Under the pieces are notes generated by a model, which ran no database searches, was not told where the DNA came from, and saw only the letters and a program-made list of their open reading frames with translations. 64,000 nucleotides of DNA from an uncultured Alphaproteobacteria bacterium (GTDB lineage: Bacteria > Pseudomonadota > Alphaproteobacteria > RF32 > CAG-239): NCBI GenBank assembly GCA_949282205.1, contig CASDOS010000059.1, positions 6,135 through 70,134 of the forward strand. The letters are read 5' to 3'. Below are positions 40,449-62,723 of the stretch, piece by piece (position 1 is the first letter of the stretch; every line of letters begins with the position of its first letter). A program made the translations under genes and the position numbers.

Positions 40449-40538
40449 TTTAAAATATTTAGATATAGGCTTATAATAAAATTAAATTTGAAGACGTCAA
40501 GTTGTTGACGCCAATTGTGCAAAACTATGAGGAAATAA

Positions 40539-41594
40539 ATGTCAACAGGATTATTTGGGATAGAACATTCAAATCGTATGCCTGAAGATCATTGGGGAAA
40601 GAATTGTTTCAATTCAAGTTTCCCAACTGCCATGGCTTGTTATATGATGAAGAATAATATACCTGCCATTTATAATAAAGTAGTATCGGATAACACAGGA
40701 AATTTGAAAGTAGTTTCAACGGAAATTCCTATTCAAAACGTTTTTAACTGTAATACCACAGATTCTCACGAACTTGATTTCCATTTTGAATCAATATATA
40801 AAAATTATCAAAATTTTTCTTTTGATCCAATTGATGGTATTGATCTCGTTGTCAAAAATACAGCAGGAGAGTTCCTCGCTCCATTAGAAGTTAAATTAAC
40901 TGTTTTACCAACAGATTCTACAAGTCGACAACCTGAAGAAAAATGGGGATGCGAATTAGTAATAAGATCTGCAACTACTTCATACTGTGCTCTTGGTATG
41001 TTTGATGCGGTTAAAGAAGAGGCATTATCCGTACGAGAGATTTTCGAGAACAATTGTGCATCTATTCAAAATTGGGACAATGATTTTGAAATGACTCATA
41101 AAACACCTAATTTAAGTCAATGTCTAGATGCTTTTCAAAAAAGGTATTATTTTCGTCAAAAGCCTCTTTTATTACAAGCCATATGGAAAACTAAAGGAAA
41201 ATCTCCTCTTCTAGCTGATCAAGCCTTTGATATTGTAGTCTGGAGTGATTATGCTTTTTCACGCTTGTTTATAGATAGTTCTTATAATATAGAAAATACC
41301 ATGAGCCGTCCCATGCGTGCTACAGCACGTCTAGCAAGATGTTTATGGGAATTAAGTAAGTCTAACAAAATTAGATTAATGGATATATATCGTCAAATGG
41401 CTTTTGGAAATCAAACCGATAAGGAGTTTGCTATTAACGGAGCAAAATGGAGAAAATATGTAGCTTCAGATAGAATTCTTAGCCCAAAATTATCCAAAGA
41501 TGTTATTCAAGAAATTATTGAGCCTGGATATATTGAACGATTAAGTCCTGAAAGGCGATTTGATCAATCACTATATTTTACTTATAGGATATGA
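40539..41594 (+). CDS. Putative type II restriction endonuclease partner of the C5-MTase
   Basis: Divergent from the MTase; candidate PD-(D/E)xK (D...LAPLEVKLT). Assignment by context only. Confidence 0.4.
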   Translation: MSTGLFGIEHSNRMPEDHWGKNCFNSSFPTAMACYMMKNNIPAIYNKVVSDNTGNLKVVSTEIPIQNVFNCNTTDSHELDFHFESIYKNYQNFSFDPIDGIDLVVKNTAGEFLAPLEVKLTVLPTDSTSRQPEEKWGCELVIRSATTSYCALGMFDAVKEEALSVREIFENNCASIQNWDNDFEMTHKTPNLSQCLDAFQKRYYFRQKPLLLQAIWKTKGKSPLLADQAFDIVVWSDYAFSRLFIDSSYNIENTMSRPMRATARLARCLWELSKSNKIRLMDIYRQMAFGNQTDKEFAINGAKWRKYVASDRILSPKLSKDVIQEIIEPGYIERLSPERRFDQSLYFTYRI

Positions 41595-41928: not shown

Positions 41929-43410
41929 ATGTATGCAACATGGTTGTATTTTGTAGGAACAAAAAAAGATCCTACCAAGTTTTTTATATATGGACTATCT
42001 ATTCCTACTAAATGCCCAATAGAATATTCTTTAAAACAAGAAGACCTCGGAAGTATTGCTGACGGTTTGCGATTATATGTTTTTCGTGCTGTAAAACAAA
42101 TCGCTATACCTATTCCTCCTGATGTTATAGATTTAAGCCTGTTTTATGACACACTAGAGTATCATATTAAACATATACTCACACCATTATATTGCGAAAA
42201 ATTTATTCAAAAAAAAGAAAGTTGTCATTTTGATAAAGAAATAGAAAGTCCTATATCTTCATTAGTAAATATAACATCATATTATACAAAAGAAATTTTG
42301 GAACTTAATTTTAATTATAAAAATTATATCAAGTTATTGCAAAAACTTTCAGAACATTCCAACCAACCATTCTATGGTAATTATCTTAATAGATTAGGAT
42401 GTCTTGAAATAGCTCAAACACAACCATGGTCTGAGAGTTTTCGTCCTTTTGGCATAGAATATGATAAAGAAGAAAAAAAATATTACTTCTATCGTCAAAC
42501 AGAATTTTTAGAAGATATATATGTAGTATTTAAATGTTATCAAACATCAATCGAAAAAAATTATGAAAAGCTTATATTTATCCCTGCAAAAACGACAAAA
42601 TACTACTTCGATTTTAATGTTGAGAATGAATGGGGATATAAATGTTCTGTTTATAATCAATTTGGTGAAATACTAGATGAAGATTGTGTATCATATATTC
42701 GTAGTGTAAATATCAATATATCTACTATATCTGGCATACGAAAAATAAAAGATGCTTTTTCAGAAAGAGATCCTGAACTATCCAAAATTCCTTGCAATAT
42801 TAGTCAATCATTTACTATACAAAATCCTAATTTAGAAACAAAGAAAAAAGAACTTGAAGATTTTTACACATATTTAGAAAGAATCATAAAAGAAGACAGC
42901 ATCAGTGAACAAGAAGGCTTCTGGTTCAAACGAGGACAACATAAATTAAGCGACATAATAAAATATTTAACAACACAATTTCCCAATCCTGATGAAATTA
43001 TAATAATTGATCCATATGCAGACATTGACACAATATCTCTTTCTATAAGGCTTCCTGCAAATAAAATAATAGTCATAGCAAACAATAAAGCTCTATCCAA
43101 CAAAGAAAATGTACACAAAATAAAGCTAGTGAAAAAACGAATAAAAGAAGCATCAGGAATTTCTGATAGGTCAACCTATTATTACATCAATAAAGAATTT
43201 CATGATAGATTTATAATTTTCAAAAAAAACGACATAATCGAAGTTTATTGTTTTCCTAATAGTATTAACGCAATATTAAAAAATGATGACTTTTTAATAT
43301 TGCGTTTACGAGGAAAAGTAAAAGAAGAAGCAATACAGCATATGAATAATCTAATATCTTTATGTGGTCCAAATAATACATTAGAAAGTATAAACAATGA
43401 ATCTGAATAA
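41929..43410 (+). CDS. Hypothetical 493-aa protein (very AT-rich gene)
   Basis: ORF; AGGAG ribosome-binding site; no recognised motifs. Confidence 0.5.
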   Translation: MYATWLYFVGTKKDPTKFFIYGLSIPTKCPIEYSLKQEDLGSIADGLRLYVFRAVKQIAIPIPPDVIDLSLFYDTLEYHIKHILTPLYCEKFIQKKESCHFDKEIESPISSLVNITSYYTKEILELNFNYKNYIKLLQKLSEHSNQPFYGNYLNRLGCLEIAQTQPWSESFRPFGIEYDKEEKKYYFYRQTEFLEDIYVVFKCYQTSIEKNYEKLIFIPAKTTKYYFDFNVENEWGYKCSVYNQFGEILDEDCVSYIRSVNINISTISGIRKIKDAFSERDPELSKIPCNISQSFTIQNPNLETKKKELEDFYTYLERIIKEDSISEQEGFWFKRGQHKLSDIIKYLTTQFPNPDEIIIIDPYADIDTISLSIRLPANKIIVIANNKALSNKENVHKIKLVKKRIKEASGISDRSTYYYINKEFHDRFIIFKKNDIIEVYCFPNSINAILKNDDFLILRLRGKVKEEAIQHMNNLISLCGPNNTLESINNESE

Positions 43411-44641
43411 TGAATTGGGTTTTGCAGAATTATCTGAAAAAATAATAGCTGAGAATACAGAAGATGTTTTTTGTTGCTTACAAAAAGAAACTCTATCATT
43501 AATCCAATTTGTTGGAATACTATCCCTTTTTGCACACAAACATATATCAAATAAATACATTTCTATCGCGTCTGAAATATTAAAAAAAAGGTATATGAAC
43601 AATATTTATATAGAATTGGAAAAAATTCCTGAACTATTTAATGAAGCATCTCATATTGCATATGAAGACATACAAAAATTTTTTGAAAATGATTTCTCTT
43701 TAACCCTCGTCCATACTATAGCTTTCTCTGAACAAATTAAATTCAATGCATCAAAATCAATTTGGGGGTTAATCTACTTATATACACTGTTGTTAAAATT
43801 AGATCTTAAAAATTTTGAAATATGGATAAAAAAAACAAAAAGAATTGATTTCAAAGTTATATTTCTAAATCTCTTATTTAACCACATTCAGAATGAAAAT
43901 ATTGATGTAGATAAGCTAAAAGATGCACATTTAGGTATTCTACAATCTTTCCATGTGCTGGTAACCTATGGACTGGAACCTAATTCTCATAATGTATGGT
44001 CTAGACAATCAAAAAATATTGAAGAAATTTTAAATAGCCCCTTAGCAGAAAAAGTAAAATTTTTAACTATTCTCAAATATATAACAAAAAAATATTGCGG
44101 TACCTCACTAAAAAAATTAGATCAAGATGAAAACTTACCTCAACTAATAAAACTATTATATGCTACTGATTATAATTTCACATGGGACGACTTGATGGTG
44201 TCAACAGGCATTCGTGAATCTTGTATTTACTATCGTATTATACAATTATTGCCAGAAACAAATACAAATAAAGTAAATTATTTTGAAAGACTGCTTGAAA
44301 AAATACTAAACTATCTAAAAGCAGAAATGTTTCAAGAATACAATTTAGATTATGCTGAATTAATAGGCAGAATATCGACTGAAATATCATCTTTAGAAAA
44401 ATTGGAAGCCTTATTTAAAAAAGAATATAAACAACTTTCTTTTCCTTATAGCTTTTGTAAAATAAAAAACTGGCAGGAAAGAATTTCTTTCTGCCTCTAT
44501 TTATTGGTAGGAATTTATATCTATAAAAAAAATAATAATGAAGAATTTAATACATATATTGATAAATTTAGATTCATAAAATCAGAAAAACATCACTATT
44601 TCGACCAGAGAATAGAAGAATTATTATTGTCATTGACATAA
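43397..44641 (+). CDS. Hypothetical 414-aa all-alpha protein, in an operon with the preceding gene
   Basis: 14-nt overlap with the upstream gene. Confidence 0.5.
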   Translation: MNLNNELGFAELSEKIIAENTEDVFCCLQKETLSLIQFVGILSLFAHKHISNKYISIASEILKKRYMNNIYIELEKIPELFNEASHIAYEDIQKFFENDFSLTLVHTIAFSEQIKFNASKSIWGLIYLYTLLLKLDLKNFEIWIKKTKRIDFKVIFLNLLFNHIQNENIDVDKLKDAHLGILQSFHVLVTYGLEPNSHNVWSRQSKNIEEILNSPLAEKVKFLTILKYITKKYCGTSLKKLDQDENLPQLIKLLYATDYNFTWDDLMVSTGIRESCIYYRIIQLLPETNTNKVNYFERLLEKILNYLKAEMFQEYNLDYAELIGRISTEISSLEKLEALFKKEYKQLSFPYSFCKIKNWQERISFCLYLLVGIYIYKKNNNEEFNTYIDKFRFIKSEKHHYFDQRIEELLLSLT

Positions 44642-44675: not shown

Positions 44676-45089
44676 TTATATCTCTCTATCTAAATTATAT
44701 TTTATTAACGAAGAACTAATATTAGGAGTTCTTTGTAAACGGACAACTCCTTTGCCATTTTGGCGGCAATACTCTATCGCACTAATAAATCCAGAATGAT
44801 TTTGGTCTGCTCCAACGGCAAAAATATCAAAGTCAATATGCCTCACTATTTCACTAACATCTGTATAAGAAATAACTTTATCTACGCAACGTAATGCCCC
44901 AACCAGTTCACATCGAACATCAGTTGAATAAAAAACATCCGCCTCTGGTTTATATTTTTTTATAAATTCAGATTTTTGTACTGCTACAATTAAAAATCCA
45001 TCCGAAACAATATTTTTTGCCTGTTCAAAAAGTTTTAAATGTCCATAATGGAAATAGTCAAAAACACCTACTGTTAAAATCCTTTTCAT
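44676..45089 (-). CDS. tagD: Glycerol-3-phosphate cytidylyltransferase
   Basis: GVFDYFHYGHLKLFEQAK (HxGH) motif; 137 aa. Confidence 0.75.
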   Translation of the reverse strand: MKRILTVGVFDYFHYGHLKLFEQAKNIVSDGFLIVAVQKSEFIKKYKPEADVFYSTDVRCELVGALRCVDKVISYTDVSEIVRHIDFDIFAVGADQNHSGFISAIEYCRQNGKGVVRLQRTPNISSSLIKYNLDREI

Positions 45090-46375
45090 TTTTTCAGCTC
45101 CAAGGAATTTGTCAGAAATTTAATAATTTTTGATGCAGAAGAAATTTCTGAATCGAATAAAATATGTATCTTAGACAGACGTTCCTCCTTTTTGATATCC
45201 TGATTTTCAAAAATAACTTTTTTAAAAATTTCTTCCAAATCAGAAATATCATAAATTTGATAGAGACTATCAATAAATGATTTCGCGAAATTATTAAATT
45301 TGGCCGCTGGAGAAATCAGATGAAAAATCGGATTCTTGCTCGGCAGATATTCTCCTAAAAATGAAACACAATCTGTTATTAAAGCATCTGAATCTGCAAA
45401 TAATTGTATATAATCACCACTGTCATAAATTGTACCTAGATTTTCCCATTGACGGTAATAGGTGTTAATTTCATCTTCCGACATAATATTATTGCAAACA
45501 ACTGCCGTCTTAAATCTCGGATGAGGCTTAAACACCCAATTGATATATCCCTGATATTTTTGTGCCAAGGAGAGAATATCCATGCCATTTTTATGAAAAG
45601 TTGCACAATTTAATCCATTAATTTCAAAAGAATGATGTGGAGCATAAATAATAGTTTTCTTTTTATTTTTAGTAGCCTTGATTTTACGATAAGCATCGAG
45701 CCTGGGGTAGCCCACATAACAAGCATTAACATTATTTTTACCTGTTATTAATTTTATCCGATTAATTTGTTCGCTATCCTCAACAAACATACACCATAAA
45801 AAATTATCAGTATAAATTGCGCTATTTTCCATAAGATGCAATCCATATGGAACGTAGCATGTCAATGCTGATTTTGATGCATTTACAGGATGTTGGGAAG
45901 CATCAAGCTCCCAAGGCTGTTGATAAAAAAGAATATCGACCCCAAAATCTTTGGCGGGCATATACTCTTTCCGATCCTTGTCATAAACATAAAACACTTT
46001 TAGACCTTTTGATTTGAAGAAATTATAGCAATCATCAATAGTTGCATAAAAATGTTTTTTCCCTCTATGAGCCAGGAGCAATTGCGTTACCAAAACTACT
46101 GGCTCAAAATAATCGCTTTTTTCCATTTCTTCATAAAGGGATTGATATTGCCACTTTGCCGGTTCATTAACTAAAAAGCCCACCTTAATTTTGCGCTTTC
46201 CAAACTCTTTTTGTAATTCGGTCAACTTCCGTGCATAATTTACAGAAACTTTCTTTCTGTAGTCATGTTTTATAGAAAATTTAATACCTAAAATGGTGAT
46301 TTTTGTTTTTGGAAATCCTTGTTTGAAGTCAAATATTTTCATGATTGCCGCCATACTAATTAAAACTTTTTTCAT
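45086..46375 (-). CDS. CDP-glycerol glycerophosphotransferase-family (TagB/TagF-like) protein
   Basis: YAPHHSF resembles the TagF YAPTWR region; operon context with the tagD-like gene; tentative. Confidence 0.5.
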   Translation of the reverse strand: MKKVLISMAAIMKIFDFKQGFPKTKITILGIKFSIKHDYRKKVSVNYARKLTELQKEFGKRKIKVGFLVNEPAKWQYQSLYEEMEKSDYFEPVVLVTQLLLAHRGKKHFYATIDDCYNFFKSKGLKVFYVYDKDRKEYMPAKDFGVDILFYQQPWELDASQHPVNASKSALTCYVPYGLHLMENSAIYTDNFLWCMFVEDSEQINRIKLITGKNNVNACYVGYPRLDAYRKIKATKNKKKTIIYAPHHSFEINGLNCATFHKNGMDILSLAQKYQGYINWVFKPHPRFKTAVVCNNIMSEDEINTYYRQWENLGTIYDSGDYIQLFADSDALITDCVSFLGEYLPSKNPIFHLISPAAKFNNFAKSFIDSLYQIYDISDLEEIFKKVIFENQDIKKEERLSKIHILFDSEISSASKIIKFLTNSLELKK

Positions 46376-46961
46376 CTTTTAATTTTTCAAAATGCACTTT
46401 GTCGCGATATTTGAATACTTTTGCTGGATTGCCGCCGGCAATAGCTAAAGGCGGAATTTCTCCATGGATAACCGCTCCGGCTTGAATAATTGCTCCATCA
46501 CCGATTTTGGTTCCCGGAAGAATGGTTACTCTGCTACCAATCCAAACAAAATTACCAATTTCAATATCTTTATAAATGTAATCCTCGGGAGAATATGGTA
46601 TATGTTGGCCATGGTCATAATTATGGTTTTGTGCAATGATAAGTAATTCTACACCGCTGTGAAAATGGTTGCCAATAGTTACTTTTCCTGCACCGTGTAT
46701 CTCACAACCATTGAAACAGCAATGTGTTCCAAGAAATGTATTTTTTGTAAGCAGAGTTTTGCCACCGCACCATAGTCGTTCTCCAACTTGGGGGCATTCT
46801 CTATAAATTTTTTGTGTCCATATATTATTATATCCATCAAATTTATCATTTTTGACTTTTAGAAAGGGAATAAGGCCAAATAAATAGTATTTTTTTCGAT
46901 GCTCATCTTCTTCTATTCTACATATCGGAAGACATGAAAACAACTTAACAACTTTACTCAT
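46356..46961 (-). CDS. Hexapeptide-repeat O-acetyltransferase (maltose/galactoside acetyltransferase-like)
   Basis: Left-handed beta-helix repeats GSRVTILPGTKIGDGAIIQAGAVIHGEIPPLAIAGGNPAKV. Confidence 0.75.
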   Translation of the reverse strand: MSKVVKLFSCLPICRIEEDEHRKKYYLFGLIPFLKVKNDKFDGYNNIWTQKIYRECPQVGERLWCGGKTLLTKNTFLGTHCCFNGCEIHGAGKVTIGNHFHSGVELLIIAQNHNYDHGQHIPYSPEDYIYKDIEIGNFVWIGSRVTILPGTKIGDGAIIQAGAVIHGEIPPLAIAGGNPAKVFKYRDKVHFEKLKDEKSFN

Positions 46962-47763
46962 TGGAAAGCTCCTTGCTTCTATATACTGTAATGCCTAATA
47001 TTTTTATCCGCCGATGATTGTTTTTGATGTTATTGCGGTAGAAAAATTTCTGCAATTTGGCACACAATCTATAAAATTTCATTTTCGGATACTTTTTCAG
47101 AAGTTTTGTTCTCAACATTAAAGAATGCTGAGCCATCTGTTGTTTATTTCTTGATTCAAATAAATTTTTTATTCTGTAAAAAAACAAAATATCAGGAACT
47201 CTGTAGACCTTAAGTTTATGAATTAAAACCATATTAAGCCATAAATCGTAATCTTCTAATCCAAGAACAAAATCCTCATCGTAACCTCCGGCTTTAATAA
47301 AATCAGTTTTCCTGAATAAAGCCGAATTTACTAAACAGTTATTGACAGACAAATGATAAGGTGTTGGGGAATGCAATACCATTTCTCCCGTTTCTTTTCC
47401 AAATTTAAGGACTCGTGAAGTTATGATATCACCTTTACCATTTATTATAGCATTGTACAGTTTTTCTAAGCACTCAGGTGTTATTTTATCATCAGCATCC
47501 AAGGGATAAATATATTTTCCCTTCGCTTTGGAAATAGCATTATTACGAGCAAAAACAACTCCCTGATTGGATTGATCGAGCAAGCGAAAATTTTTATATT
47601 TATTTGTATATTGTTTGATGATTTTCAAAGAATCGTCTGTTGATCCATCATTGACGATAATCACTTCATAATTCGTAAATGTTTGTGCCAAAACAGAATC
47701 TAGGCATTCTGCAATATATTTTTCCTGATTAAAACACGGAATAATAACTGAAATTTCAGGCAT
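46954..47763 (-). CDS. Glycosyltransferase family 2
   Basis: ISVIIPCFNQEKYIAECLDSVLAQTFTNYEVIIVNDGSTDDS; start moved to MPEIS, which has an AAGGA ribosome-binding site. Confidence 0.8.
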   Translation of the reverse strand: MPEISVIIPCFNQEKYIAECLDSVLAQTFTNYEVIIVNDGSTDDSLKIIKQYTNKYKNFRLLDQSNQGVVFARNNAISKAKGKYIYPLDADDKITPECLEKLYNAIINGKGDIITSRVLKFGKETGEMVLHSPTPYHLSVNNCLVNSALFRKTDFIKAGGYDEDFVLGLEDYDLWLNMVLIHKLKVYRVPDILFFYRIKNLFESRNKQQMAQHSLMLRTKLLKKYPKMKFYRLCAKLQKFFYRNNIKNNHRRIKILGITVYRSKELSNE

Positions 47764-48625
47764 ATTGCTTTCCTTTAAGCTTACACGACCATTTGTAGGA
47801 AAAGAGAAGAATTTTTTCAAACAGATAGAATCTTGTTTTATTTCTCCAGGATCTGATTGTAATCAAAGGTAGAAAACCAAATAAGTTAATCCGATAAGTA
47901 TGGAGACCTTCCATTTGAAAAAAATTATACAATGCAGGATTCTCTGCCTGAACTTGAGCGCGGATAGCAAAAGAAGCTATCGACATTTTTTCTTGTTGTG
48001 TTTTTGAGGTGTTCGTACCATGGTCGCGGTATTTAAATAAAACATCAGGAAGGTTATGAAATTTAGTATAAGGTATCAGCCGACACCACAAACGATAATC
48101 TTCAGCAGGAGAAAAATAAGCTTCATAGCGAATACTGTTTATCATAAGGATGTTCTTTTTTATCATAGAAGCCGGATGAACAATAGCACAAACACTCATA
48201 AGAGATGCCTTAATTTCCTCATCAGTGAGTGGATGAGTAATTATTTTTTTCTTTTTTTGAAAAACTTCTACAGCACAACCGACAACGCCTATTTCAGGAT
48301 GTTCATCTAAATATTGAGATTCTTTTTCAAGCCTTTCTGGTAAAGAAATATCATCATGGTCAAAAACAGCCAAATATTCACCTTTGGCCATATCAATCAA
48401 TTTGTTGCGGCTGGCGGAAATACCAAGATTTTTCTCATTTTTGAAATATTTAATGCGTTTGTCTTTATAGGATTTAACAACAGCCTCTCGATCATCTTCT
48501 GGACAGTCATCCAAAATCAAAAACTCAAAATCGGCAAAAGTTTGTTTTAAAATGCTTTCTATTGCCTCTCGCAAATAAAGCTCGGGTGTTTTATACACTG
48601 GCATTAAAACTGAAATTTTGACCAT
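47756..48625 (-). CDS. Glycosyltransferase family 2 (first gene of the operon)
   Basis: ISVLMPVYKTPELYLREAIESILKQTFADFEFLILDDC; start moved to MVKIS, which has a GGAGG ribosome-binding site. Confidence 0.8.
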   Translation of the reverse strand: MVKISVLMPVYKTPELYLREAIESILKQTFADFEFLILDDCPEDDREAVVKSYKDKRIKYFKNEKNLGISASRNKLIDMAKGEYLAVFDHDDISLPERLEKESQYLDEHPEIGVVGCAVEVFQKKKKIITHPLTDEEIKASLMSVCAIVHPASMIKKNILMINSIRYEAYFSPAEDYRLWCRLIPYTKFHNLPDVLFKYRDHGTNTSKTQQEKMSIASFAIRAQVQAENPALYNFFQMEGLHTYRINLFGFLPLITIRSWRNKTRFYLFEKILLFSYKWSCKLKGKQYA

Positions 48626-48774
48626 AAAACCTCCTGACATTAAAAGGCCAAATAGTGTCGGGACGGTGACAAATGTCTGTAATAATTTAGATGTAAAAAG
48701 ACACCTTCCGGTTTTTAGAAGCAAACCTCTTGAACATAGCCGGAACATCCCGAACGTGAACATTAAACATGGGC

Positions 48775-48922
48775 GTTTAACGAACGTTAGGCGGCTACAA
48801 TGGACTATTTGCAAAGGAAAACGTTTACTAAATTGAAAATATAAAATTATTTGTATAAAAACAGATAAAAAACTTGAGATTTTTTATAACTAGTTTATAA
48901 AGAAATCTAACGTTCGTCAGAT
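48775..48922. promoter_or_regulatory. Candidate invertible promoter segment flanked by inversely oriented recombinase-type sites. Left: gTTTAACG-AA-CGTTAGgc at 48775-48792. Right: ATCTAACG-TT-CGTCAGAT at 48905-48922. Plus-strand TTGAAA/TATAAA and TTGAGA/TATAAA promoter-like hexamers inside.
   Basis: 11-bp perfect inverted repeat ACGAACGTTAG. Each site is internally palindromic around a 2-bp core (AA vs TT); core-to-core distance is about 130 bp. Adjacent serine invertase gene. Confidence 0.35.
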
Positions 48923-48969
48923 TTTGATAGCCAAAAAAAAGGTTTATACCTTTTGATATCCATATAATT

Positions 48970-49566
48970 TTAACCGTTTCCTCTTTCTAAAAAATTATAG
49001 ATTGTAGTAACACTAACCCCCATCATTTTTGCAACTTGCGTTTTAGGAACACCTTTATTTAACAATCTGGCAATACTTTGTTCTCTTCCATCAAGAATAT
49101 GCTTTTTATTGCGACTGCCAAATTCCCGCCCAAGCTTTCGGCCACTGGCTCGGATTCGATGCAAAGCCTCTTTGGTTCGTTGACTGATGAGATTTCTCTC
49201 AATTTCAGCAGAGAGTGAAAAAGCAAATGCAAGAACTTTGCTTTGAATATCAACACCCAAACGATAGTTGTCTTTAATTGTCCAGACTTGAGATTCTTTT
49301 TTCATACAAATATTTAAAATTGTCATGATTTGTAAAAGGTTGCGTCCAAGGCGGGATATTTCAGAACAGATTAAGATATCTCCTTTTTTCAATTTTTTAA
49401 GAAGTTTTCCGAGTTTACGTTTTTCAAAATCTTTTGTACCACTGATTGTTTCCGTAATCCATTTGTCGATTGAAATGTGTTCTCTTTCGCAAAAAGTTTT
49501 GATTTCAAATTCTTGATTTTCCAATGTCTGTTTATCGGTGCTTACTCGTAAATATCCGTAAATCAT
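48970..49566 (-). CDS. Small serine recombinase (Hin/Gin/resolvase family DNA invertase)
   Basis: MIYGYLRVSTDKQ...ENQ catalytic N-terminus, C-terminal HTH (GVPKTQVAKMMGVSVTTIYNFL); 198 aa. Confidence 0.85.
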   Translation of the reverse strand: MIYGYLRVSTDKQTLENQEFEIKTFCEREHISIDKWITETISGTKDFEKRKLGKLLKKLKKGDILICSEISRLGRNLLQIMTILNICMKKESQVWTIKDNYRLGVDIQSKVLAFAFSLSAEIERNLISQRTKEALHRIRASGRKLGREFGSRNKKHILDGREQSIARLLNKGVPKTQVAKMMGVSVTTIYNFLERGNG

Positions 49567-49612
49567 ATCACTCTCCTAAAATTTAGATATAAAAAAAGTC
49601 CTCCAGCTATTG

Positions 49613-49813
49613 CTAACTGGAGGTACATATTTCATCATATATTATGTTATTCCTGTCAATTTGCCGAATTGTTTCCGGTGTGTCATGTTCATAGTCAGCA
49701 TAGACAGGTTCATATAAAAGGCAGTAATTACCGTTTATATTTGCCGTGCAGGCGGTTAATACACTCATTATCAGACAAGCTGTTGCGAGCTTTTTTAGCA
49801 ATTTTGAGAGCAT
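49613..49813 (-). CDS. o-spanin (Rz1-like outer-membrane lipoprotein)
   Basis: Lipobox LTAC; overlaps the i-spanin gene in a different frame. Confidence 0.55.
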   Translation of the reverse strand: MLSKLLKKLATACLIMSVLTACTANINGNYCLLYEPVYADYEHDTPETIRQIDRNNIIYDEICTSS

Positions 49814-49937
49814 TGTTTTCTCCTTTTAACTGTTCTTTTTCTGCGGTTTCCTTGGCGTGACGATAACCAAACAGATATAAAAAAAGAGCGAAGGCCGCAA
49901 AAACCACCGCTTTAAATTTCTTTAGAATTTCCATCAT
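49728..49937 (-). CDS. i-spanin (Rz-like: N-terminal TM + periplasmic coiled coil)
   Basis: TM AVVFAAFALFLYLF followed by a charged helical region; 86-nt out-of-frame overlap with the lipoprotein gene. Confidence 0.5.
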   Translation of the reverse strand: MMEILKKFKAVVFAAFALFLYLFGYRHAKETAEKEQLKGENNALKIAKKARNSLSDNECINRLHGKYKR

Positions 49938-50130
49938 CTTTTTTTCTCCTGCTCATTCCAATATCCCGCACGCCACTGATGCCAAGCATTATACCCAGAC
50001 TGGTCAGCAGTTGCTCCCAATCTACAAGTTCCACATCAAAATATGGTGCAATCACGCAGTTGTTGAGGAACCCATAACACAAAATCCAGCCAATCAGCGG
50101 AATCCATGAACGTTTATTTAATTTTGGCAT
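49912..50130 (-). CDS. Holin-like 2-TM protein
   Basis: 72 aa, two hydrophobic segments; position in the lysis cassette. Confidence 0.4.
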   Translation of the reverse strand: MPKLNKRSWIPLIGWILCYGFLNNCVIAPYFDVELVDWEQLLTSLGIMLGISGVRDIGMSRRKKDDGNSKEI

Positions 50131-50537
50131 AATTCAATCCCCTGTTGGATAAGCTCATCCGAATATGGCTGAATACCGTTTTCCATACGGATAACGGCTT
50201 TAATAAACACTGTCAGCACACCGCGTTCCTCAATATCTATAACCGTGTCCGGATAAACCCCGAGTTGTTTCGCAACCGACTGAATATAGGCGGTGGTTTG
50301 GTTTTCATTTGGCGGCGCATAGCGGCTGACAATCTGGCGAACCGTATTTAACCCATGGATTCGTTTGTAGTTTATCAGAACTTTTGCCAACGCCCGGATT
50401 CCATAGACCGGAGCCGTAAAAACACAAAAGGCGGAATCCATATTCCGCCCGTTTGGATTTAACCCCAGCCAGTTCGCTCCATGCCGTATGTTTCCCGGAT
50501 TATTGTTTCTTATGCCTCTTGGCAACTGCTGATTCAT
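50118..50537 (-). CDS. Phage protein with RGIRNNNPGNIR motif (annotated elsewhere as 'structural protein P5'-like); possible endolysin by position
   Basis: Motif recognised from prophage proteins; function uncertain. Confidence 0.35.
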   Translation of the reverse strand: MNQQLPRGIRNNNPGNIRHGANWLGLNPNGRNMDSAFCVFTAPVYGIRALAKVLINYKRIHGLNTVRQIVSRYAPPNENQTTAYIQSVAKQLGVYPDTVIDIEERGVLTVFIKAVIRMENGIQPYSDELIQQGIELCQN

Positions 50538-50730
50538 TGTGCAACTCCCATATCATTTCTCTTAATTCGTCAATTTTCAGCTCCAGACGGTTGATATGTA
50601 CCTGCGTAGCATATTCGCGCGCCACCTGAACCTTAAAATCGTTAAGTTCCTTGCGCATTTCGCCGAATTTATAAACCAGCCAGACAAACGCCGGAACACA
50701 GACGATCTGTAAAAACTGTAGCCAATCCAT
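50500..50730 (-). CDS. Small TM + coiled-coil phage protein (holin/antiholin-like)
   Basis: N-terminal TM VCVPAFVWLVYKF; 76 aa. Confidence 0.4.
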   Translation of the reverse strand: MDWLQFLQIVCVPAFVWLVYKFGEMRKELNDFKVQVAREYATQVHINRLELKIDELREMIWELHNESAVAKRHKKQ

Positions 50731-52955
50731 TATGTTTTGTAGACCTCCTCACTTTCATTGACACAGGATATCTCCACCGTGTCGCCGCGCGGACGTACAC
50801 CGATAACCTTTGCCATCATGGACATTTTACCTTTTGTTCCAAAGGCAAAATGCGTCCGTTCCCGGGCTGTACCGGTATAAATTTCAAAATCAGGCATTGT
50901 TGGCAGAACAGCTTCACTGTCTACCGCTCCACGAGTAGCAGGAAAAGCGCTGCTCATTGAACCGTCCGCCAGTCTGAAACTGATAAAATGTTCTTCGCCA
51001 GGTTTCCAAATCAAATTTTCGGAAAGTTTTAAAATATTGCCGATACCCGACAATACTTCGCCTCCTTGCCCCCATTCACACATATCGTGAACTATGCTGA
51101 TTAAATCACCATATGTCGGAATCAATCCCTCCAGTTCAGTCTGGAAAGTAATATATTTGCGGCGATAACGGTTGCAGGCACACATATAATATCCCTCGCG
51201 CTCGGCATGATCTTTGTCGGTACAGCCAAACAGATCCACATTAGCCGGATTTTCTTCTGTGCTGTCGGAAAGTTTGGTAACGACATCGTCATATTTCCAG
51301 TATTTATTGGAAAAATACTGCACTTTGACGCTGTCTGCCGTATCTTCAGACGGCATAATATATTCTATCGAAAAGCTGTCCTTAATAATATTCCGCGGCG
51401 TAAACATCGCTGTCGGTATGGTTTTGGGTTCATCACGGATAATCCGTACCATACCCGATTGTAAAATTGGTAGCGCTCGGCCACAACGTGCAACTTTGGA
51501 AACAGCTTCCCAGATGGTTGTGGCACTGTCAAAAATCCCGTCAAAATAATCGCCGCGGCTCTCCCAAACTTGATCTAACTGTTCCAATTCCATCAGATGA
51601 ATACGTTCATCCGGCAATCTGCCGCCGTATTGCGCTTTTAGAATATCGGCGATTGCCCAGGCAATGGAACGACTGGCAACAGGTTCACTCCAACCACTTT
51701 GACTATTCCATTTTCTAACCTTACGAGTAATAATGGCATTGATTTTACGGCTGGAGTTGGACGACAGATTGTTGGTTGCCCGCATTTTGATAGCCAGCAA
51801 TGTCATTTCGCCAAAAGTCGCAGGTGCTTCCATATGCCCTTTCAGGCTTTCCCAATATATGGAATGTGCCGCCCGGGCGCTGGTGTCTTTGACATCAAGT
51901 CTGGTTGTGCGAACCTCATAGCGTCCCATATCCACACTATAATTATAAGTGAGGCGGATGGGCTTATTTTGTGCCGCCGAATAAGTTTCCGTTCCAAGCA
52001 CGAACCAATCATCCACAGCATTACCTTCATCATCTATTGTTCTGGCCTCAATTTGCCACTGAATGGATTTTTCCGACAAACCGCCGCTGTCGTTGGCATA
52101 ATATAAACCGGCACTCATAACGACATCTATGCTGATTTTATTGATTTGCGTGTCTTCCGGATTAACGACAAAACCGCCGACATATTCATCTTTCAGCAAT
52201 TCTTGTCCGGCAATTTCCGGAGCCATAACGACATTGGGATTAAAAAGTGTCACTTCCCGATTCGGTTCGACAATTTCATACTCTACCTCGGCAAAACTGC
52301 TAATCGGCGTATCATCTATACGAATTTGTTCCACCTCACAGTACTCTTGGGTTAAGACATGCAACTGACATAAATACTGTTCATTGTCTTTATATTCGGT
52401 GTATGGTTTGGCGGCAAAGTCAGGATAAATAATGTGCCGGCCATATAAAACAGGAATGACACCGCCGAGTTTGGCCTGATTACCTTGGGCATTTAAGGAG
52501 TAAGTCGGGCTGGTTTCCAGAGAAGAAGAGGAATAAGACGAACTTAAACTGCTGGATGGAGACGGAATGACGGCATTGACCAACATTGAACCGCCAACGC
52601 TGACAGCCGTTGCCGCGGCCGCTCCGGCAAAAGCGCCGTACGCACCGGCAGCAATACCGCCGGTGTAATATGCCGCCACCATAACTGCCACCGACAAAAC
52701 CACCTTTAGAGGATTGGAACCTCCTCCGCCACCACCTTGCGGCAAGCAGAGAAAAGCAAGGTGGTCAGTCATTCTGGGGTTGATATTCCAATATTGCCGC
52801 AACAAAGGCTCACCATTAAAAAAACAGATAAACGGTAAATTTTGCGGACTGACGTTATATTCTGTGACAATTTCCACCACACTCATCTGTTTTGGACAAT
52901 AAAAAACCTCGCTATCCGCGAGGTTGAAAGGATTTTGTATTTTAACTATTTGCAT
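50730..52955 (-). CDS. Tail-tip protein: gpI-like N-terminus fused to a truncated gpJ-like host-specificity protein
   Basis: N-terminus matches the lambda gpI pattern (GGGG..., VLSVAV...GAAA..., IPVLYGR); the rest aligns to the gpJ N-terminal half (SIAWAIADIL.../ARCGRALPIL...). Confidence 0.7.
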   Translation of the reverse strand: MQIVKIQNPFNLADSEVFYCPKQMSVVEIVTEYNVSPQNLPFICFFNGEPLLRQYWNINPRMTDHLAFLCLPQGGGGGGSNPLKVVLSVAVMVAAYYTGGIAAGAYGAFAGAAAATAVSVGGSMLVNAVIPSPSSSLSSSYSSSSLETSPTYSLNAQGNQAKLGGVIPVLYGRHIIYPDFAAKPYTEYKDNEQYLCQLHVLTQEYCEVEQIRIDDTPISSFAEVEYEIVEPNREVTLFNPNVVMAPEIAGQELLKDEYVGGFVVNPEDTQINKISIDVVMSAGLYYANDSGGLSEKSIQWQIEARTIDDEGNAVDDWFVLGTETYSAAQNKPIRLTYNYSVDMGRYEVRTTRLDVKDTSARAAHSIYWESLKGHMEAPATFGEMTLLAIKMRATNNLSSNSSRKINAIITRKVRKWNSQSGWSEPVASRSIAWAIADILKAQYGGRLPDERIHLMELEQLDQVWESRGDYFDGIFDSATTIWEAVSKVARCGRALPILQSGMVRIIRDEPKTIPTAMFTPRNIIKDSFSIEYIMPSEDTADSVKVQYFSNKYWKYDDVVTKLSDSTEENPANVDLFGCTDKDHAEREGYYMCACNRYRRKYITFQTELEGLIPTYGDLISIVHDMCEWGQGGEVLSGIGNILKLSENLIWKPGEEHFISFRLADGSMSSAFPATRGAVDSEAVLPTMPDFEIYTGTARERTHFAFGTKGKMSMMAKVIGVRPRGDTVEISCVNESEEVYKT

Positions 52956-52968
52956 CTGTGTTCATTTG

Positions 52969-53985
52969 TTAAGAATGTTCTTCTAAAAGTAAAGAATTTT
53001 CTTTAGCAATCATTTCCGCCAGTTCTTCCTCTGTTGGTAAAACGGTTTTATATTTGCTGGCAAAAATCTGCTTGCTTTCATTAAGAACCGAATACTTGAC
53101 CATCGTTTCACTTTTATCGGTGCAGAGAATTATTCCGATTGTCGGATTATCATCCACACCACGTTTGAGACTGTCAAACATTCTGACATACATATCCATC
53201 TGTCCGATATCCGCATGCGTGAGCTTGGTTGTCTTCAGATCGACCACAACAAAACATTTCAAAATATAGTTGTAGAAAACCAAATCAGCGTAAAAATGGT
53301 CAGTTTCCGTACTGATACGTTGCTGTCTGGCCACAAAAGAAAAGCCTTTGCCTAATTCCAGCAAAAATTTCTGCAAATGCGTAATCAGCTCTTTTTCAAG
53401 CAGACTTTCCTTACCTTCCAGATTTTCAGGGATATTCAAAAATTCCAGAACATACGGATCTTTAATAAAGTTTTCAGTGGACTGACATACAGGAAGATTG
53501 TTTGAAACATCAACAGTTTTCTGTGTAGACAGTAGCCGATGATAATAACCTGATTTAATATTACGTTCCAATACGCGGGATGACCAATTTTCCGCGCTGG
53601 CTTCTTTTAAATAATAGTCTCTTTCTTGAGTATTATCCAAACGCATAATTAAACGAATGTTGGTCCACGAAAGATTCGTTACGCAGTGCGTATCAAATTC
53701 AGGAAAAGTCTGATAAAAAGTTCTCATATTTCTTAGATTAGCCTCAGAGAAACCTTTGCCAAAGGAATCTGTTAAATAACGGGAAAGGCTTTCAATCAAT
53801 TTATCTCCATATTCCGCTCGAGTTTTGCCATTTTGTTCTTCTTCAACAATTCGCCGACCGATTTTCCAATAAGTTTCAACCATAATAGAATTGACGGTGC
53901 GATAAGCATTGGAACGGGCTTGAGTCAGCAATTCTGCAATATCAGCAAAAAACGGCATATTTTGTGTGGATATTTCTGTTGTCAT
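52969..53985 (-). CDS. DUF1016/YhcG-type PD-(D/E)xK nuclease (moron in the tail module)
   Basis: C-terminal VVDLKTTKLTHADIGQMDMYV PD-ExK core; occupies the slot between the K-like and I/J-like genes. Confidence 0.65.
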   Translation of the reverse strand: MTTEISTQNMPFFADIAELLTQARSNAYRTVNSIMVETYWKIGRRIVEEEQNGKTRAEYGDKLIESLSRYLTDSFGKGFSEANLRNMRTFYQTFPEFDTHCVTNLSWTNIRLIMRLDNTQERDYYLKEASAENWSSRVLERNIKSGYYHRLLSTQKTVDVSNNLPVCQSTENFIKDPYVLEFLNIPENLEGKESLLEKELITHLQKFLLELGKGFSFVARQQRISTETDHFYADLVFYNYILKCFVVVDLKTTKLTHADIGQMDMYVRMFDSLKRGVDDNPTIGIILCTDKSETMVKYSVLNESKQIFASKYKTVLPTEEELAEMIAKENSLLLEEHS

Positions 53986-54041
53986 CTGGATACCTCTCTT
54001 TTATTGTGTCCCTAGCAAACAATGAGTTGAAAGTCAAGATT

Positions 54042-54431
54042 TTAGGTTTCTTCATACTCCAAAATCTCCATAATCTGCCAGCCGTTCATTTTAAGTTCCG
54101 GCAGTTTTTGAAATACCACGCCGACACCCTGCATATTATGCAAAATACCGCCGCCGTCAGCTTCACAGTATACACCGACATGACAAGGATATTTATTCTG
54201 GGTTAAAATGACAATATTTTTATCCTTAAAATCAGAAGTTTCTTTTAAGTGGTTATAATTAGATGATTTTCTGAACTCTGATAAAACATCGCGCAGATTT
54301 GTTGCATCGGCAACAATTGGCGACAACTCTATCCGAAGTTCATTTTTATAAACATCCCGAACCAAGCCCCAACAGTCATAATCGCCGTTAATCCAAGACT
54401 TTCCGATATATTTGACAGCCCAATGTTTCAT
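54042..54431 (-). CDS. Tail assembly protein gpK-like (NlpC/P60 / JAB-type)
   Basis: GDYDCWGLVRDVY start is typical of lambda K homologs. Confidence 0.7.
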   Translation of the reverse strand: MKHWAVKYIGKSWINGDYDCWGLVRDVYKNELRIELSPIVADATNLRDVLSEFRKSSNYNHLKETSDFKDKNIVILTQNKYPCHVGVYCEADGGGILHNMQGVGVVFQKLPELKMNGWQIMEILEYEET

Positions 54432-54432
54432 T

Positions 54433-54957
54433 TTAGCTTACTAACCCCATAAATTTTGATAAACGATAAGTTTCATTTGGAAACGTTTTGTTACCGATAT
54501 CGGTCATTCTGGCCTTGGCTGTGATTTTGTAAACATCGCCGCTGACTTCTGTAACTGTCAGGCTGACCGGTGGTATCATCTGTGGTGTTTCCAAATCTGT
54601 TGATAGATACGGCCGGTAAATCAGCTCGGTTTTATGTTGCGAGGAGGCGGCACTATCTAAATGCTTGATAATTTCCCGGCTGACATTGTCAATTTCCACT
54701 GTGATTTCAGGCACTGCCGAAGTATCCACCGGTGGCAGTTCCAAATTAAAGCACATTGCGAAAAACTCGACTTTTTCACCGTTTTCAAGCTTGGCCGTGA
54801 TATTTTTGAATCCCTGAACCAGACGGATAGTAGTTGGATTTCCGTCATCATCCATAAAATCCGGATGTTTTATTTCTAATGTATGATAGATAAACACATC
54901 GCTTGGGCATGAAGCATAAGCTTCTTTGATTGCCTCCTGCAAAACATCATTTGGCAT
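54433..54957 (-). CDS. Minor tail protein gpL-like
   Basis: Position and N-terminal similarity to lambda L. Confidence 0.55.
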   Translation of the reverse strand: MPNDVLQEAIKEAYASCPSDVFIYHTLEIKHPDFMDDDGNPTTIRLVQGFKNITAKLENGEKVEFFAMCFNLELPPVDTSAVPEITVEIDNVSREIIKHLDSAASSQHKTELIYRPYLSTDLETPQMIPPVSLTVTEVSGDVYKITAKARMTDIGNKTFPNETYRLSKFMGLVS

Positions 54958-54966
54958 TTTGTTCTC

Positions 54967-56466
54967 CTAATAACCGACAGCAAACCATGAAACATAACCC
55001 TGTCTGGCACCATCACTGTCTGAATCTCTATAGCGGATTTTAAAAGACTGTGCTGTAATGGAAACAGCAACCGCCAGATAATTAAAATCAGATGTGGGAC
55101 TCGACGGCTGGTTGTAAGGAGTAAGCAGAACAGCAATCGGCGCTGTTGTAAAAGCCAAAGGAAATGTCACGGAAAAATCTGAATTTGCATTGACATTAAC
55201 ACGGCCGCCCTGTTTAATTAAGCCGGTTGCAAGATTTTTTTCATACCACGAGGTGCTGCTTTTTGATGATTGAAAAATTTTGGAATTAAAAGCAGAAACT
55301 GAAATATTGCTTAAAGAAACGTCAAGTTTATTAGTCAAACCGCTGCGTAAAACCGATGTATCCTCTTCTGACAGTGGACGACTGATATCGGCGCACTTTA
55401 TATATACCAGCTCATAATATGATTTTGGTCTCGTTTCTGCTCCAAAGCGCGGTGTACCGTTTTTTCCGTCCGTTTTGGGATCAAGAACATACATATTTGT
55501 CCCATCTTTTTGCAGTCCCTCATCTGCGCCGGAACTGGTCATAATAGCGGCACCATCGCCTGAACCATACGTATCCGTACGTATTTGGTTGGAATGATAG
55601 TGTCCCTGAAATTGGTCGTTTAAAACCGAACCGGTATTATCAGTCGTCCCGCTTCTGGCATAGTTCAGCAACAACGGCAAAATAACAGTATCATTGTCCA
55701 CTTTGACATAGGATGCGCACATACCGTAGCTTTCAACCTGGCTGTCATATGTCGCTTCATCAACAAACACTAAATAATCTGTGTCAACCAACTGAGTAAA
55801 AAAATCAGGATATCTGGCGCGGGTAATGGTGTTTTTGTACCACACCGGCTCGTAACCGTCCGGAACTTTTTTGTTCGCCGGAACAGACAGGCGGGAACCG
55901 AGCGGCGCAGGCGCACAGGATTCTGCATAATATTTTGCCTGATTGGCTTGGGCTTGAGCCAACGCAACCTGATTTTTACCTTCGGCTTTAACATTGGCAA
56001 CCTGCGTATTCCCGGCTGAATTAACCGCATTGACTTGTGTCTCGCCGTTATTCTGTATTATTGAAACCTGCGTTGTGCTTTCATTTTGAATAGTTGAAAC
56101 AGCTGTATCGGTGGCCGATGAGATGTCGTTGAAAATCTGGTTTGCCTGATTCTTTATATTTAAAGTATCTTCTTTTAACTTTTCAACATCCGATTTTATG
56201 GTATTTGTCTCTGATTTAATTTGTTCTGTTGAATTTTGGGCTGCAATCGCCGCATCCCGGGCATTCTCTGCTTCTGCAACCACATCCGACACACCACCGG
56301 TTATGGCCGTGCGGATGTCTTTGAGTTGTTTGGCAACGGTCGGAACATCGCCGCTTTCCACAGAAACATTCGTATTTTCATCACCGTGAACGATAGCGTG
56401 CCACTTTTCACCATCACTTTCGGCCTGAACAACAACGGCTTCCAGCCTTTCTTCCATATTAGCCAT
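54967..56466 (-). CDS. Putative tail fiber/receptor-binding protein (coiled-coil N-terminal half)
   Basis: Inserted between the M-like and L-like genes; T/Q/N-rich coiled-coil segment. Confidence 0.35.
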   Translation of the reverse strand: MANMEERLEAVVVQAESDGEKWHAIVHGDENTNVSVESGDVPTVAKQLKDIRTAITGGVSDVVAEAENARDAAIAAQNSTEQIKSETNTIKSDVEKLKEDTLNIKNQANQIFNDISSATDTAVSTIQNESTTQVSIIQNNGETQVNAVNSAGNTQVANVKAEGKNQVALAQAQANQAKYYAESCAPAPLGSRLSVPANKKVPDGYEPVWYKNTITRARYPDFFTQLVDTDYLVFVDEATYDSQVESYGMCASYVKVDNDTVILPLLLNYARSGTTDNTGSVLNDQFQGHYHSNQIRTDTYGSGDGAAIMTSSGADEGLQKDGTNMYVLDPKTDGKNGTPRFGAETRPKSYYELVYIKCADISRPLSEEDTSVLRSGLTNKLDVSLSNISVSAFNSKIFQSSKSSTSWYEKNLATGLIKQGGRVNVNANSDFSVTFPLAFTTAPIAVLLTPYNQPSSPTSDFNYLAVAVSITAQSFKIRYRDSDSDGARQGYVSWFAVGY

Positions 56467-56948
56467 TACAAATTCTCCAACTGTTTAAAGCAGGTTATAT
56501 TTACATATTTATGAAAAAGGTCTCCTGAACGGGACAATTTATCAAAATCATTGGAAAGCAGGATGTCTAAAGCCCCCTCTGACAGGGTAGGGCGCTCTCG
56601 TATTTCCAATTCCGATGTTATCACCCACAAAATTCCGTTTTGTAATTTAGCGGTAAACTGTTGGGTAAACCTTGCTTCCTGCTCAATCAGACCCAACCCG
56701 CCTAAAAGAGGAATAACAAACCACTCAGCCCCTTCTTTGGCATGATACTTATACCAAGCCTCAAAGAGAGAAAACTGCGAAGCGTTCATAAACCATTTGA
56801 CGGTAATCCGGCTCGGAACTGAATCAAAACGTCGCCGTTGCCGCGCCGTTCCGGATTCCATCTGGGTGCGGATAATCGCTTCATTGGGGGTAATGGAATA
56901 TTCCTCTACCAGAGGCAAAGGAAGCAAATCCGGAAATTTTGTTGCCAT
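56466..56948 (-). CDS. Minor tail protein gpM-like
   Basis: Position after the tape measure; W/F-rich core resembles M. Confidence 0.45.
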   Translation of the reverse strand: MATKFPDLLPLPLVEEYSITPNEAIIRTQMESGTARQRRRFDSVPSRITVKWFMNASQFSLFEAWYKYHAKEGAEWFVIPLLGGLGLIEQEARFTQQFTAKLQNGILWVITSELEIRERPTLSEGALDILLSNDFDKLSRSGDLFHKYVNITCFKQLENL

Positions 56949-56962
56949 AGAGTATCCTCTGA

Positions 56963-59581: not shown

Positions 59582-59871
59582 TTATCTCTTGATTTCCTAA
59601 AATAGCAAATATTCCTATCGGCAAAAGTTCACTTATCAGCTCCATATCAAACCCAAGGTTTTGAGCAAGATTAAGAGCCAAGGGTAAATCAGGCTTAAGA
59701 AGTTTCAGCAAAATTTCCCACGCCTGATATCCGACATCAGTTCCCAGCGCTGTTTCTATATATCGGCATTTGTGGAACGGGCAGAAGGTTTTGCCGTCTT
59801 CTCCGCATCCTCTGCAGTAGCTTCGCCCATCGCCGAAGTGCCATCTGGCGCGGGCGTAGAGACGTTTTTTT
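59568..59871 (-). CDS. gpT-like -1 frame extension (expressed only as a G-T fusion by programmed frameshift)
   Basis: Open ~100-codon -1 frame beginning exactly at the slippery A_AAA_AAC (rc of 59864-59871) and ending at a TAA that overlaps the tape-measure ATG. Confidence 0.5.
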
Positions 59872-61228: not shown

Positions 61229-61244
61229 AGGGTATTCCTTTCAC

Positions 61245-62253: not shown

Positions 62254-62522
62254 ATCAGATTATGGATGTCTGTGACAGGTTCGGAACGGACAGCATAAAT
62301 TTTGCCGTCCATTCCGATTTTATCACCAACTCTTAAATCCGGCGCATCGGAAATTCTGATCTTTGCCCGATGTGTGCCGGAATGGGCATTGACAAACCCG
62401 ACTTCGGTTATCTCATCAGGCTCGCTTAAAATCAGGCGGACAGAATTATTTTTGTATATTGCCGTCCGTCCCAGCCGGTTGAACAAACTGTCCGCTGCCG
62501 TTTTCATCGGGTTTACCGTCAT
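62226..62522 (-). CDS. Head-tail joining protein gpFII-like
   Basis: Similarity pattern to lambda FII (SLF...LRxGDxIxxxGxxY). Confidence 0.5.
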   Translation of the reverse strand: MTVNPMKTAADSLFNRLGRTAIYKNNSVRLILSEPDEITEVGFVNAHSGTHRAKIRISDAPDLRVGDKIGMDGKIYAVRSEPVTDIHNLIWSCNLVCV

Positions 62523-62712: not shown

Positions 62713-62723
62713 TTTTGCCTCCT

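Follow-up and report, generated by a model that had tools for sequence, protein, structure and literature searches.

Invertible promoters of capsular loci have been studied most thoroughly in the Bacteroidales of the gut. The serine recombinase Mpi of Bacteroides fragilis acts on 13 invertible regions, seven capsular-polysaccharide promoters among them (PMC4747536), and the repeat motif of this enzyme is ARACGTTCGTN (PMC8375218). The capsular-polysaccharide promoters of Bacteroides intestinalis are 183-186 bp long, are flanked by GTTCGTTTAA and start transcription within a repeat (PMC8375218). The locus described here lies in a stretch of 64,000 nucleotides (positions 6,135 to 70,134 of contig CASDOS010000059.1, assembly GCA_949282205.1; referred to as the window) from an uncultured gut alphaproteobacterium, where a 116-bp segment bearing a putative promoter is located between a recombinase gene and a five-gene operon with glycosyltransferase genes. 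It is very probably a site-specific invertible promoter (inverton), and as such it is a polysaccharide inverton of the Bacteroides Mpi type in another phylum. A first-pass annotation of the window, made from the sequence alone, had proposed a Hin-type promoter switch at this position and had pointed to its likeness to the switches of Bacteroides. This likeness turned out to be exact rather than loose, as the recombinase passes the cutoff of the NCBIfam model NF009949 and the repeats carry the Mpi motif.

Natural inversion of the segment

The 344-bp intergenic region 48626-48969 is bordered by minus-strand genes on both sides, the recombinase gene on the right and a GT2 glycosyltransferase gene on the left. 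The two crossover sites and the perfect 11-bp inverted repeat (ACGAACGTTAG / CTAACGTTCGT) that the first-pass annotation had listed for this region could be verified in the sequence (Table 1). The arms of the repeat are separated by 116 nt, segment and repeats together cover 138 bp, and the sites are 130 bp apart from centre to centre. Both sites had further been described as internally palindromic around AA or TT, which is correct for palindromes that are imperfect, with AA in the centre of the operon-side site and TT in the centre of the recombinase-side site. The latter is a natural inversion breakpoint and fits the family consensus ATCTAACG-WW-CGTTAGAT.

Hundreds of public contigs encode a protein identical to the recombinase, and 23 assemblies of the same locus were retrieved (L001-L010, L070-L071 and L072-L082). 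In 22 of these 23 assemblies the segment is oriented as in the window and in one (L009) it has the opposite orientation, which amounts to 23 versus 1 if the window itself is counted. Comparison of L009 with L004 revealed flanks that are 100% identical on both sides, 116-bp interiors that are exact reverse complements of each other, and breakpoints that fall inside the 11-bp repeats. The junctions of the inverted orientation read ...GACGAACGTTAG/GCGGCTAC... and ...AAGAAAT/CTAACGTTCGTTAAACG... (slash, junction). Because the 11-bp repeat is shorter than the usual assembler k-mers, an assembler should not be able to create such a flip, and molecules in the inverted orientation would have to have dominated the sample of L009.

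Two related species were each found in both orientations, independently of the window species. The loci L035 and L036 have an 18-bp repeat in common and interiors that are 96% identical only once reverse complemented, and L024, from another species again, is flipped relative to both L065 (96%) and L025 (93%). The predicted inversion of the segment is thus confirmed by the exact reverse complement in L009 and by the occurrence of both orientations in two other species. A scan of the metagenome_contigs collection with the operon-side repeat and its flank yielded two loci only, both in the orientation in which the promoter is directed away from the operon (OFF), and a scan of the viral_contigs collection with a 17-mer gave no match. 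In another species, all three assemblies seen (L011, L086 and L087) have the promoter directed at the operon (ON). Of the human gut samples with the window species, SAMEA3664573 has an ON assembly, and SAMEA3665167, SAMEA7045407 and ERZ16268217 have OFF assemblies. The OFF bias in the window species versus a species that is ON throughout suggests locus-specific set points, as they have been reported for B. fragilis promoters (PMC10403206).

Recombinase, putative promoter and operon

The recombinase matches Pfam Resolvase at positions 1-144 of 145 (E 6e-33) in addition to HTH_7, and PHROG 125 (‘DNA invertase’). Against NF009949, the equivalog model ‘master DNA invertase Mpi family serine-type recombinase’, it scores 309.1 bits with a cutoff of 272 and covers model positions 1-195 of 203. 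The motifs with the catalytic serine and arginine residues are intact (YLRVSTDKQ, SRLGRN and EIERNLISQRTKEAL). Alphaproteobacterial proteins from metagenome-assembled genomes (MAGs) with 83% identity bear the NCBI name ‘master DNA invertase Mpi family’, and a homologue with 84% identity (P0042) sits in a different MAG. Within the phage collection, no annotated protein is closer to the recombinase than the DNA invertase of Bacteroides phage B124-14 (62% identity); no Mpi-type sites were found within 3.4 kb of this phage gene. Among solved structures, the Gin invertase is the best match (E 7e-15), followed by the Tn3 and gamma-delta resolvases (E ~1e-11). The predicted recombinase of the Hin/resolvase type next to the right-hand site is therefore a small serine invertase according to Pfam and NCBIfam, and its gene ends 47 nt from this site, not 48. 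The designation ‘Hin-type’, with sites resembling hix or gix, holds for the superfamily and for the geometry; the family is Mpi, and the site sequences are not those of hix or gix.

Directly upstream of the ribosome-binding site of the recombinase gene, there is a strong intrinsic terminator (49590-49623, minus strand) with a 10-bp stem, five G-C pairs and a T-run. The hairpin behind the recombinase stop codon is weak, and with a z of -1.24 the folding energy of the surrounding region (48918-48975, minus strand) lacks significance. This hairpin is kept in all loci of the same species and might act as a terminator that shields the switch from read-through.

Two pairs of promoter-like hexamers had been annotated in the segment, both on the plus strand and directed away from the minus-strand operon. 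The pair TTGAGA-16-TATAAA is retained here since it has a conserved homologue in at least 11 switches, and the pair TTGAAA-15-TATAAA, which has a faint counterpart elsewhere, gains only faint support as a second promoter from the comparison. In 11 related loci (L011, L018, L020-L025, L035, L036 and L065), TTGACT-18-TATAAG lies 4-5 nt from one repeat; it points at the downstream genes in L011, L020, L025, L036 and L065, and at the recombinase in L018, L021, L022, L023, L024 and L035. The TTGAGA-16-TATAAA of the window occupies the same position, its -10 hexamer ending 5 nt before the repeat. Across the switches the segment therefore holds a conserved TTGAnn-16/18-TATAAn beside one repeat, in either orientation, and these hexamers are predicted to form an active promoter. 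This promoter is directed at the 3′ end of the recombinase gene in the window and at the operon in L009, in agreement with the earlier statement that the operon is currently OFF. The generic promoter scan gave no alternative promoter on the operon strand and no promoter-like site on the minus strand of the leader 48626-48779. No Rfam family was found anywhere in the window, and thus no riboswitch or known leader RNA.

The switched operon (44676-48625, minus strand) comprises five genes. Its first gene starts with an ATG at 48625 instead of 48626 and is preceded by an AGGAGG ribosome-binding site. There are no flippase, polymerase or export genes among the five, and for this reason the operon has the appearance of a module for the synthesis or decoration of a glycan containing glycerol phosphate. 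The predicted product is a surface polysaccharide of this composition. The host is an uncultured gut alphaproteobacterium and not a Gram-positive organism, as the gene names tagD and tagF might suggest.

In the proposed mechanism, the Mpi-family recombinase would bind as dimers to the two inverted, imperfectly palindromic sites resembling ATCTAACG-WW-CGTTAGAT, cut at the central AA/TT and rotate the 116-bp segment. It is this recombinase that presumably catalyses the inversion, with a specificity for these sites. Serine recombinases cleave at the central dinucleotide, and cleavage at the central AA/TT is likewise assumed here; the data place the exchange only within the 11-bp identity. In the state of the window, the promoter would fire toward the 3′ end of the recombinase gene and the five-gene operon would be promoterless and OFF. 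In the inverted state, as in L009, transcription would start in or beside the operon-side repeat and cross the leader into the operon. The outcome would be a phase-variable synthesis or decoration of the glycerol-phosphate-containing surface polysaccharide.

Table 1. Features of the switch, the operon and the dead invertase paralogues. Positions without a locus name refer to the window.
Feature	Position	Strand	Size	Remarks
Operon-proximal crossover site	48775-48792			gTTTAACG-AA-CGTTAGgc; repeat arm 48780-48790
Recombinase-proximal crossover site	48905-48922			ATCTAACG-TT-CGTCAGAT; repeat arm 48907-48917
Invertible segment	48791-48906		116 bp	L009 exact reverse complement of L004, flanks 100% identical
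Putative sigma-70-like promoter	48874-48901	+		TTGAGA 48874-48879, spacer 16, TATAAA 48896-48901; positional homology to relatives
Second hexamer pair	48833-48859	+		TTGAAA 48833-48838, spacer 15, TATAAA 48854-48859
Untranslated leader, switch to first gene	48626-48779	-	~155 nt	
Weak hairpin and T-run after recombinase stop	48933-48954	-		7-bp stem AAAAGGU/ACCUUUU, then U8
Mpi-family small serine DNA invertase gene	48970-49566	-	198 aa	YLRVSTDKQ, SRLGRN, C-terminal helix-turn-helix
GT2 glycosyltransferase, first operon gene	47756-48625	-	289 aa	Pfam Glycos_transf_2, E 5e-31; gene called in L001-L010
Second GT2 glycosyltransferase	46954-47763	-	269 aa	As called in public assemblies
Hexapeptide-repeat O-acetyltransferase	46356-46961	-	201 aa	Pfam Hexapep; WbbJ/WcaF-like NCBIfam matches below cutoffs
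TagF-like CDP-glycerol glycerophosphotransferase-family protein	45086-46375	-		Pfam Glyphos_transf 27.7 bits, cutoff 22.1
TagD-like cytidylyltransferase, last operon gene	44676-45089	-	137 aa	Pfam CTP_transf_like; TIGR01518 56.5 bits, below equivalog cutoff 165
Dead paralogue	L011:6828-7421			
Dead paralogue	L012:6854-7450			
Dead paralogue	L015:6837-7391			
Dead paralogue	L020:6818-7417			
Dead paralogue	L021:1931-2530			
Dead paralogue	L023:6831-7424			
Dead paralogue	L024:6818-7420			
Dead paralogue	L034:6857-7444			
Dead paralogue	L035:6873-7451			
Dead paralogue	L037:2670-3257			
Dead paralogue	L086:3328-3921			

The operon differs between assemblies of the same locus. In L001 and L003 versus L002 and L004-L010, the recombinase, the switch and the first GT2 gene are identical and the cargo further downstream differs, consisting either of three GT2 genes and a Polysacc_synt_2 epimerase gene or of GT2, acetyltransferase, TagF-like and TagD-like genes. 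This represents cassette replacement behind a constant switch. Farther from the switch, a restriction-modification pair is located at 39270-41594, with a C-5 cytosine methyltransferase (39270-40448, minus strand) and a HindVP-family restriction endonuclease (40539-41594, plus strand). It is followed at 41929-44641 by two overlapping plus-strand genes of very low G + C content (27%), encoding a protein of 493 aa, whose N-terminal domain scores 70.7 bits for the VPA1262 family and falls short of the cutoff of 80, and one of 414 aa for which no family match was found. These genes and the restriction-modification pair are located between the operon and core genes and may together constitute a defence island.

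Related switches in other species

A scan of one genome per species resulted in 59 loci at which a homologue of the recombinase is encoded, with identities of 52-88%. Nearly all of them belong to MAGs that bear the title uncultured Alphaproteobacteria and come from the guts of humans, primates, rodents and ruminants. Seven loci (L024, L025, L033, L048, L028, L051 and L065) come from ‘cleanbin’ assemblies titled Bacteroidaceae, [Ruminococcus] gnavus, Holdemanella biformis or Eubacteriales, titles that are probably binning or naming errors and do not give the true hosts. Several MAGs contain two or three copies of the recombinase, and several of these copies adjoin a switch.

For ~18 of the more similar homologues, there is an inverted-repeat pair that has (T)AACG-WW-CGTT as its core and starts 45-60 bp past the recombinase stop codon, and alignment of the sites leads to the idealised palindrome ATCTAACG-WW-CGTTAGAT. 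The distance from centre to centre is commonly ~131 bp (range ~119-157), compared to 130 bp in the window. Across the species represented by L011-L065 this spacing clusters tightly despite differing repeat sequences, which suggests a helical-phasing or looping constraint on so short a segment. The genes downstream of the related switches belong to polysaccharide synthesis throughout (DegT aminotransferases, GT2, GT1 and GT8 glycosyltransferases, epimerases, dehydratases, nucleotidyl transferases, RgpF and WbqC). Two loci are organised in a more complex way: L045:841-1051 contains three repeat copies, one proximal and two distal (104 and 181 nt), by which alternative inversions would be possible, and in L061 another Mpi-type site pair (12268-12399) follows 5.7 kb after the recombinase gene and is possibly a second switch that is served in trans.

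At many of the related loci, the gene immediately downstream of the invertible promoter encodes an invertase paralogue of 185-200 aa with 18-30% identity. The C-terminal helix-turn-helix is kept, and the arginine before the catalytic serine, the arginines of SRLGRN and often the serine itself are lost, so that Pfam barely detects the Resolvase domain. No such dead paralogue is present at the switch of the window. Since it would be made in the ON state only, the dead paralogue might regulate or lock switches. We know of no inverton system for which a regulatory layer of this kind, a dead paralogue that locks other switches, has been described.

Alternative explanations and comparison with known systems

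Several observations weigh against the interpretation of the locus as an invertible glycan promoter. With 23 of 24 sequences OFF, the ON state appears rare or disfavoured and is represented in the window species by one assembly, and the inversion was seen by comparing assemblies, not at the read level within one population. The repeat is short: when the intergenic region was shuffled 2000 times, 33 of the shuffled sequences (1.65%) contained a perfect inverted repeat of 11 bp or more with a spacing of 50-300 bp. By itself the repeat is mildly unusual, and the decisive evidence is comparative. The hexamers of the window (TTGAGA/TATAAA) are weaker than those of its relatives, and the generic promoter scan flagged nothing inside the segment; it missed TTGAGA-16-TATAAA because its rule demands a final T in the -10 hexamer, where the window has an A. 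In the same scan, no promoter of its own was recognisable for the recombinase gene between the terminator at 49590-49623 and the ribosome-binding site, and expression of the invertase may depend on read-through from phage late or lysis genes. Finally, with regard to a possible action of the invertase in trans as a ‘master’ enzyme, the 64 kb contain no second recombinase and no other target site (no further copy of the 11-mer with up to one mismatch, and no other location of the repeat pair in a site-pair search).

A lambda-like prophage adjoins the recombinase gene (49613-64000, minus strand) and continues beyond the window (L084); its G + C content is 41-50%, compared to ~35% for its neighbours. 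It contains genes for a GpA terminase, gpW, a portal protein (Phage_portal_2), an S49 protease, gpD, a gpE capsid protein, a tail tube protein, an 872-aa tape measure protein, an NlpC/P60 protein and a 741-aa TipJ-family protein. A gene transfer agent of the RcGTA type was considered for this cluster in view of the alphaproteobacterial host and rejected, as the gene content is lambda-like, which indicates a prophage or prophage remnant.

This neighbourhood raises the possibility that the invertase belongs to the prophage in the manner of Gin, Cin or Pin, where it would switch tail fibres and host range, or that switch and operon form a lysogenic-conversion cassette, a role in chromosomal polysaccharide synthesis being secondary. 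The position right after the tail and lysis genes fits this explanation, as does the repetition of the recombinase-tail synteny in several species whose TipJ proteins are only 47-52% identical. However, no crossover-site pair was found in or near the tail genes, which leaves a Gin-like tail-fibre switch unsupported, and the 116-bp promoter segment is the only inverting DNA. The small operon without flippase or polymerase resembles modification cassettes, and the nearest annotated homologue in the phage collection is the invertase of a Bacteroides phage; on the other hand, many related modules of recombinase, switch and polysaccharide genes are without phage genes within 6 kb, and the region of switch and operon has a lower G + C content (27-35%) than the prophage (41-50%). 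Overall, an invertase that primarily serves the prophage is unlikely. A phage-linked origin or a role in lysogenic conversion is possible and compatible with an invertible glycan promoter.

The palindromes could also be operators of a dimeric helix-turn-helix regulator or res-type sites at which a resolvase acts on mobile-element cointegrates. Both explanations are contradicted by the natural inversions and were rejected with near certainty: three species groups have the intervening DNA in inverted form, with breakpoints in the repeats. The imperfect palindrome at each site and the resemblance of the recombinase to the Tn3 and gamma-delta resolvases speak in their favour, but there are two single sites in inverted and not direct orientation instead of res regions with three subsites, no transposase is located nearby, and the curated family is that of the Mpi invertase. 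A further explanation takes antisense control of the recombinase as the main output of the switch, by which its expression would be damped and the OFF state locked, with glycan control as an additional effect. Its basis is purely geometric, in that the OFF-state promoter and the recombinase gene are convergent with only a weak hairpin between them, and this hairpin could itself terminate the antisense transcript. The strong OFF bias among the assemblies of the window species is in line with such locking, but in other species with the same geometry the ON state is common, and we consider antisense control as the main output to be very unlikely.

With the invertible glycan promoter as the preferred interpretation, the same recombinase family and repeat motif in gut Alphaproteobacteria point to a complete switch module that is shared across phyla in the gut. 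On a wider and tentative view, for which the odds are rather low, gut Alphaproteobacteria acquired the Mpi recombinase and repeats of Bacteroidales, probably by phage-linked transfer, and rebuilt them as a multi-locus network of glycan phase variation of their own, with host-type promoters, a cis-encoded invertase per locus and often an ON-only dead paralogue that would coordinate or lock other switches by binding to their sites. The related loci with a dead paralogue as the first gene under the switch, and not the window itself, are the most novel lead. For a group known from MAGs only, the locus provides an experimentally tractable entry to surface biology, probably including phage and immune evasion. 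The inversion can be verified from public assemblies alone, the locus will show as structural heterogeneity in metagenomes, and existing human cohorts can be used to score ON/OFF ratios. No paper on invertons in this gut alphaproteobacterial lineage was found in the literature; broad surveys such as DeepInverton may include such loci.

Compared to the invertases Hin, Gin, Cin and Pin, the window recombinase is likewise a small serine recombinase with a C-terminal helix-turn-helix, with Gin as its best structure match. The imperfectly palindromic inverted sites with a 2-bp AA/TT core and an invertase gene adjoining the segment are also common to both; as in Hin, where the segment carries a promoter, a putative promoter lies within the segment, and as in Gin and Cin, the invertase is located beside phage tail genes. 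Unlike in this family, the invertase gene of the window is located outside its segment, the sequence similarity is distant (E 7e-15) and the sites are of the form ATCTAACG-WW-CGTTAGAT instead of the 26-bp hix or gix. The segment measures ~1 kb in Hin and ~3 kb in Gin, compared to 116 bp here, and a Fis-bound recombinational enhancer is the mechanistic hallmark of the Hin, Gin, Cin and Pin invertases. The tyrosine invertons (Escherichia coli fimS with FimB/FimE, Bacteroides Tsr19/BF2766) resemble the locus in having a short ON/OFF promoter for a surface structure and a local recombinase, whereas the enzyme of the window is a serine recombinase and the repeats are unrelated.

The closest described system is B. 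fragilis Mpi with PSA-PSH, whose recombinase belongs to the same family according to the NCBIfam equivalog model. The repeat core is common as well, with ARACGTTCGTN and GTTCGTTTAA in Bacteroides and TAACGTTCGTT and GTTCGTTAAA in the window: both arms read TAACGTTCGT(T/C), matching 10 of 11 positions of the Mpi motif, and GTTCGTTAAA in the operon-side site matches the B. intestinalis repeat at 9 of 10 positions. Further likenesses are the short segment with a putative promoter, a transcription start predicted at or in the operon-side repeat, a predicted surface-polysaccharide operon as the target, and several such loci per genome in related MAGs. The differences concern the host, which is a gut alphaproteobacterium and not a member of the Bacteroidota, the segment of 116 bp (138 bp with repeats) versus 183-186 bp in B. 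intestinalis, and the promoter, which is TTGACA/TATAAT-like and not of the Bacteroides type. Moreover, the recombinase of the window is encoded in cis, 47 nt from its switch, whereas one B. fragilis Mpi serves 13 distant regions (PMC4747536). No UpxY or UpxZ was seen downstream of the switch, and many related loci open with a dead recombinase paralogue instead. By its protein, its sites and its behaviour, the locus belongs to the Mpi family.

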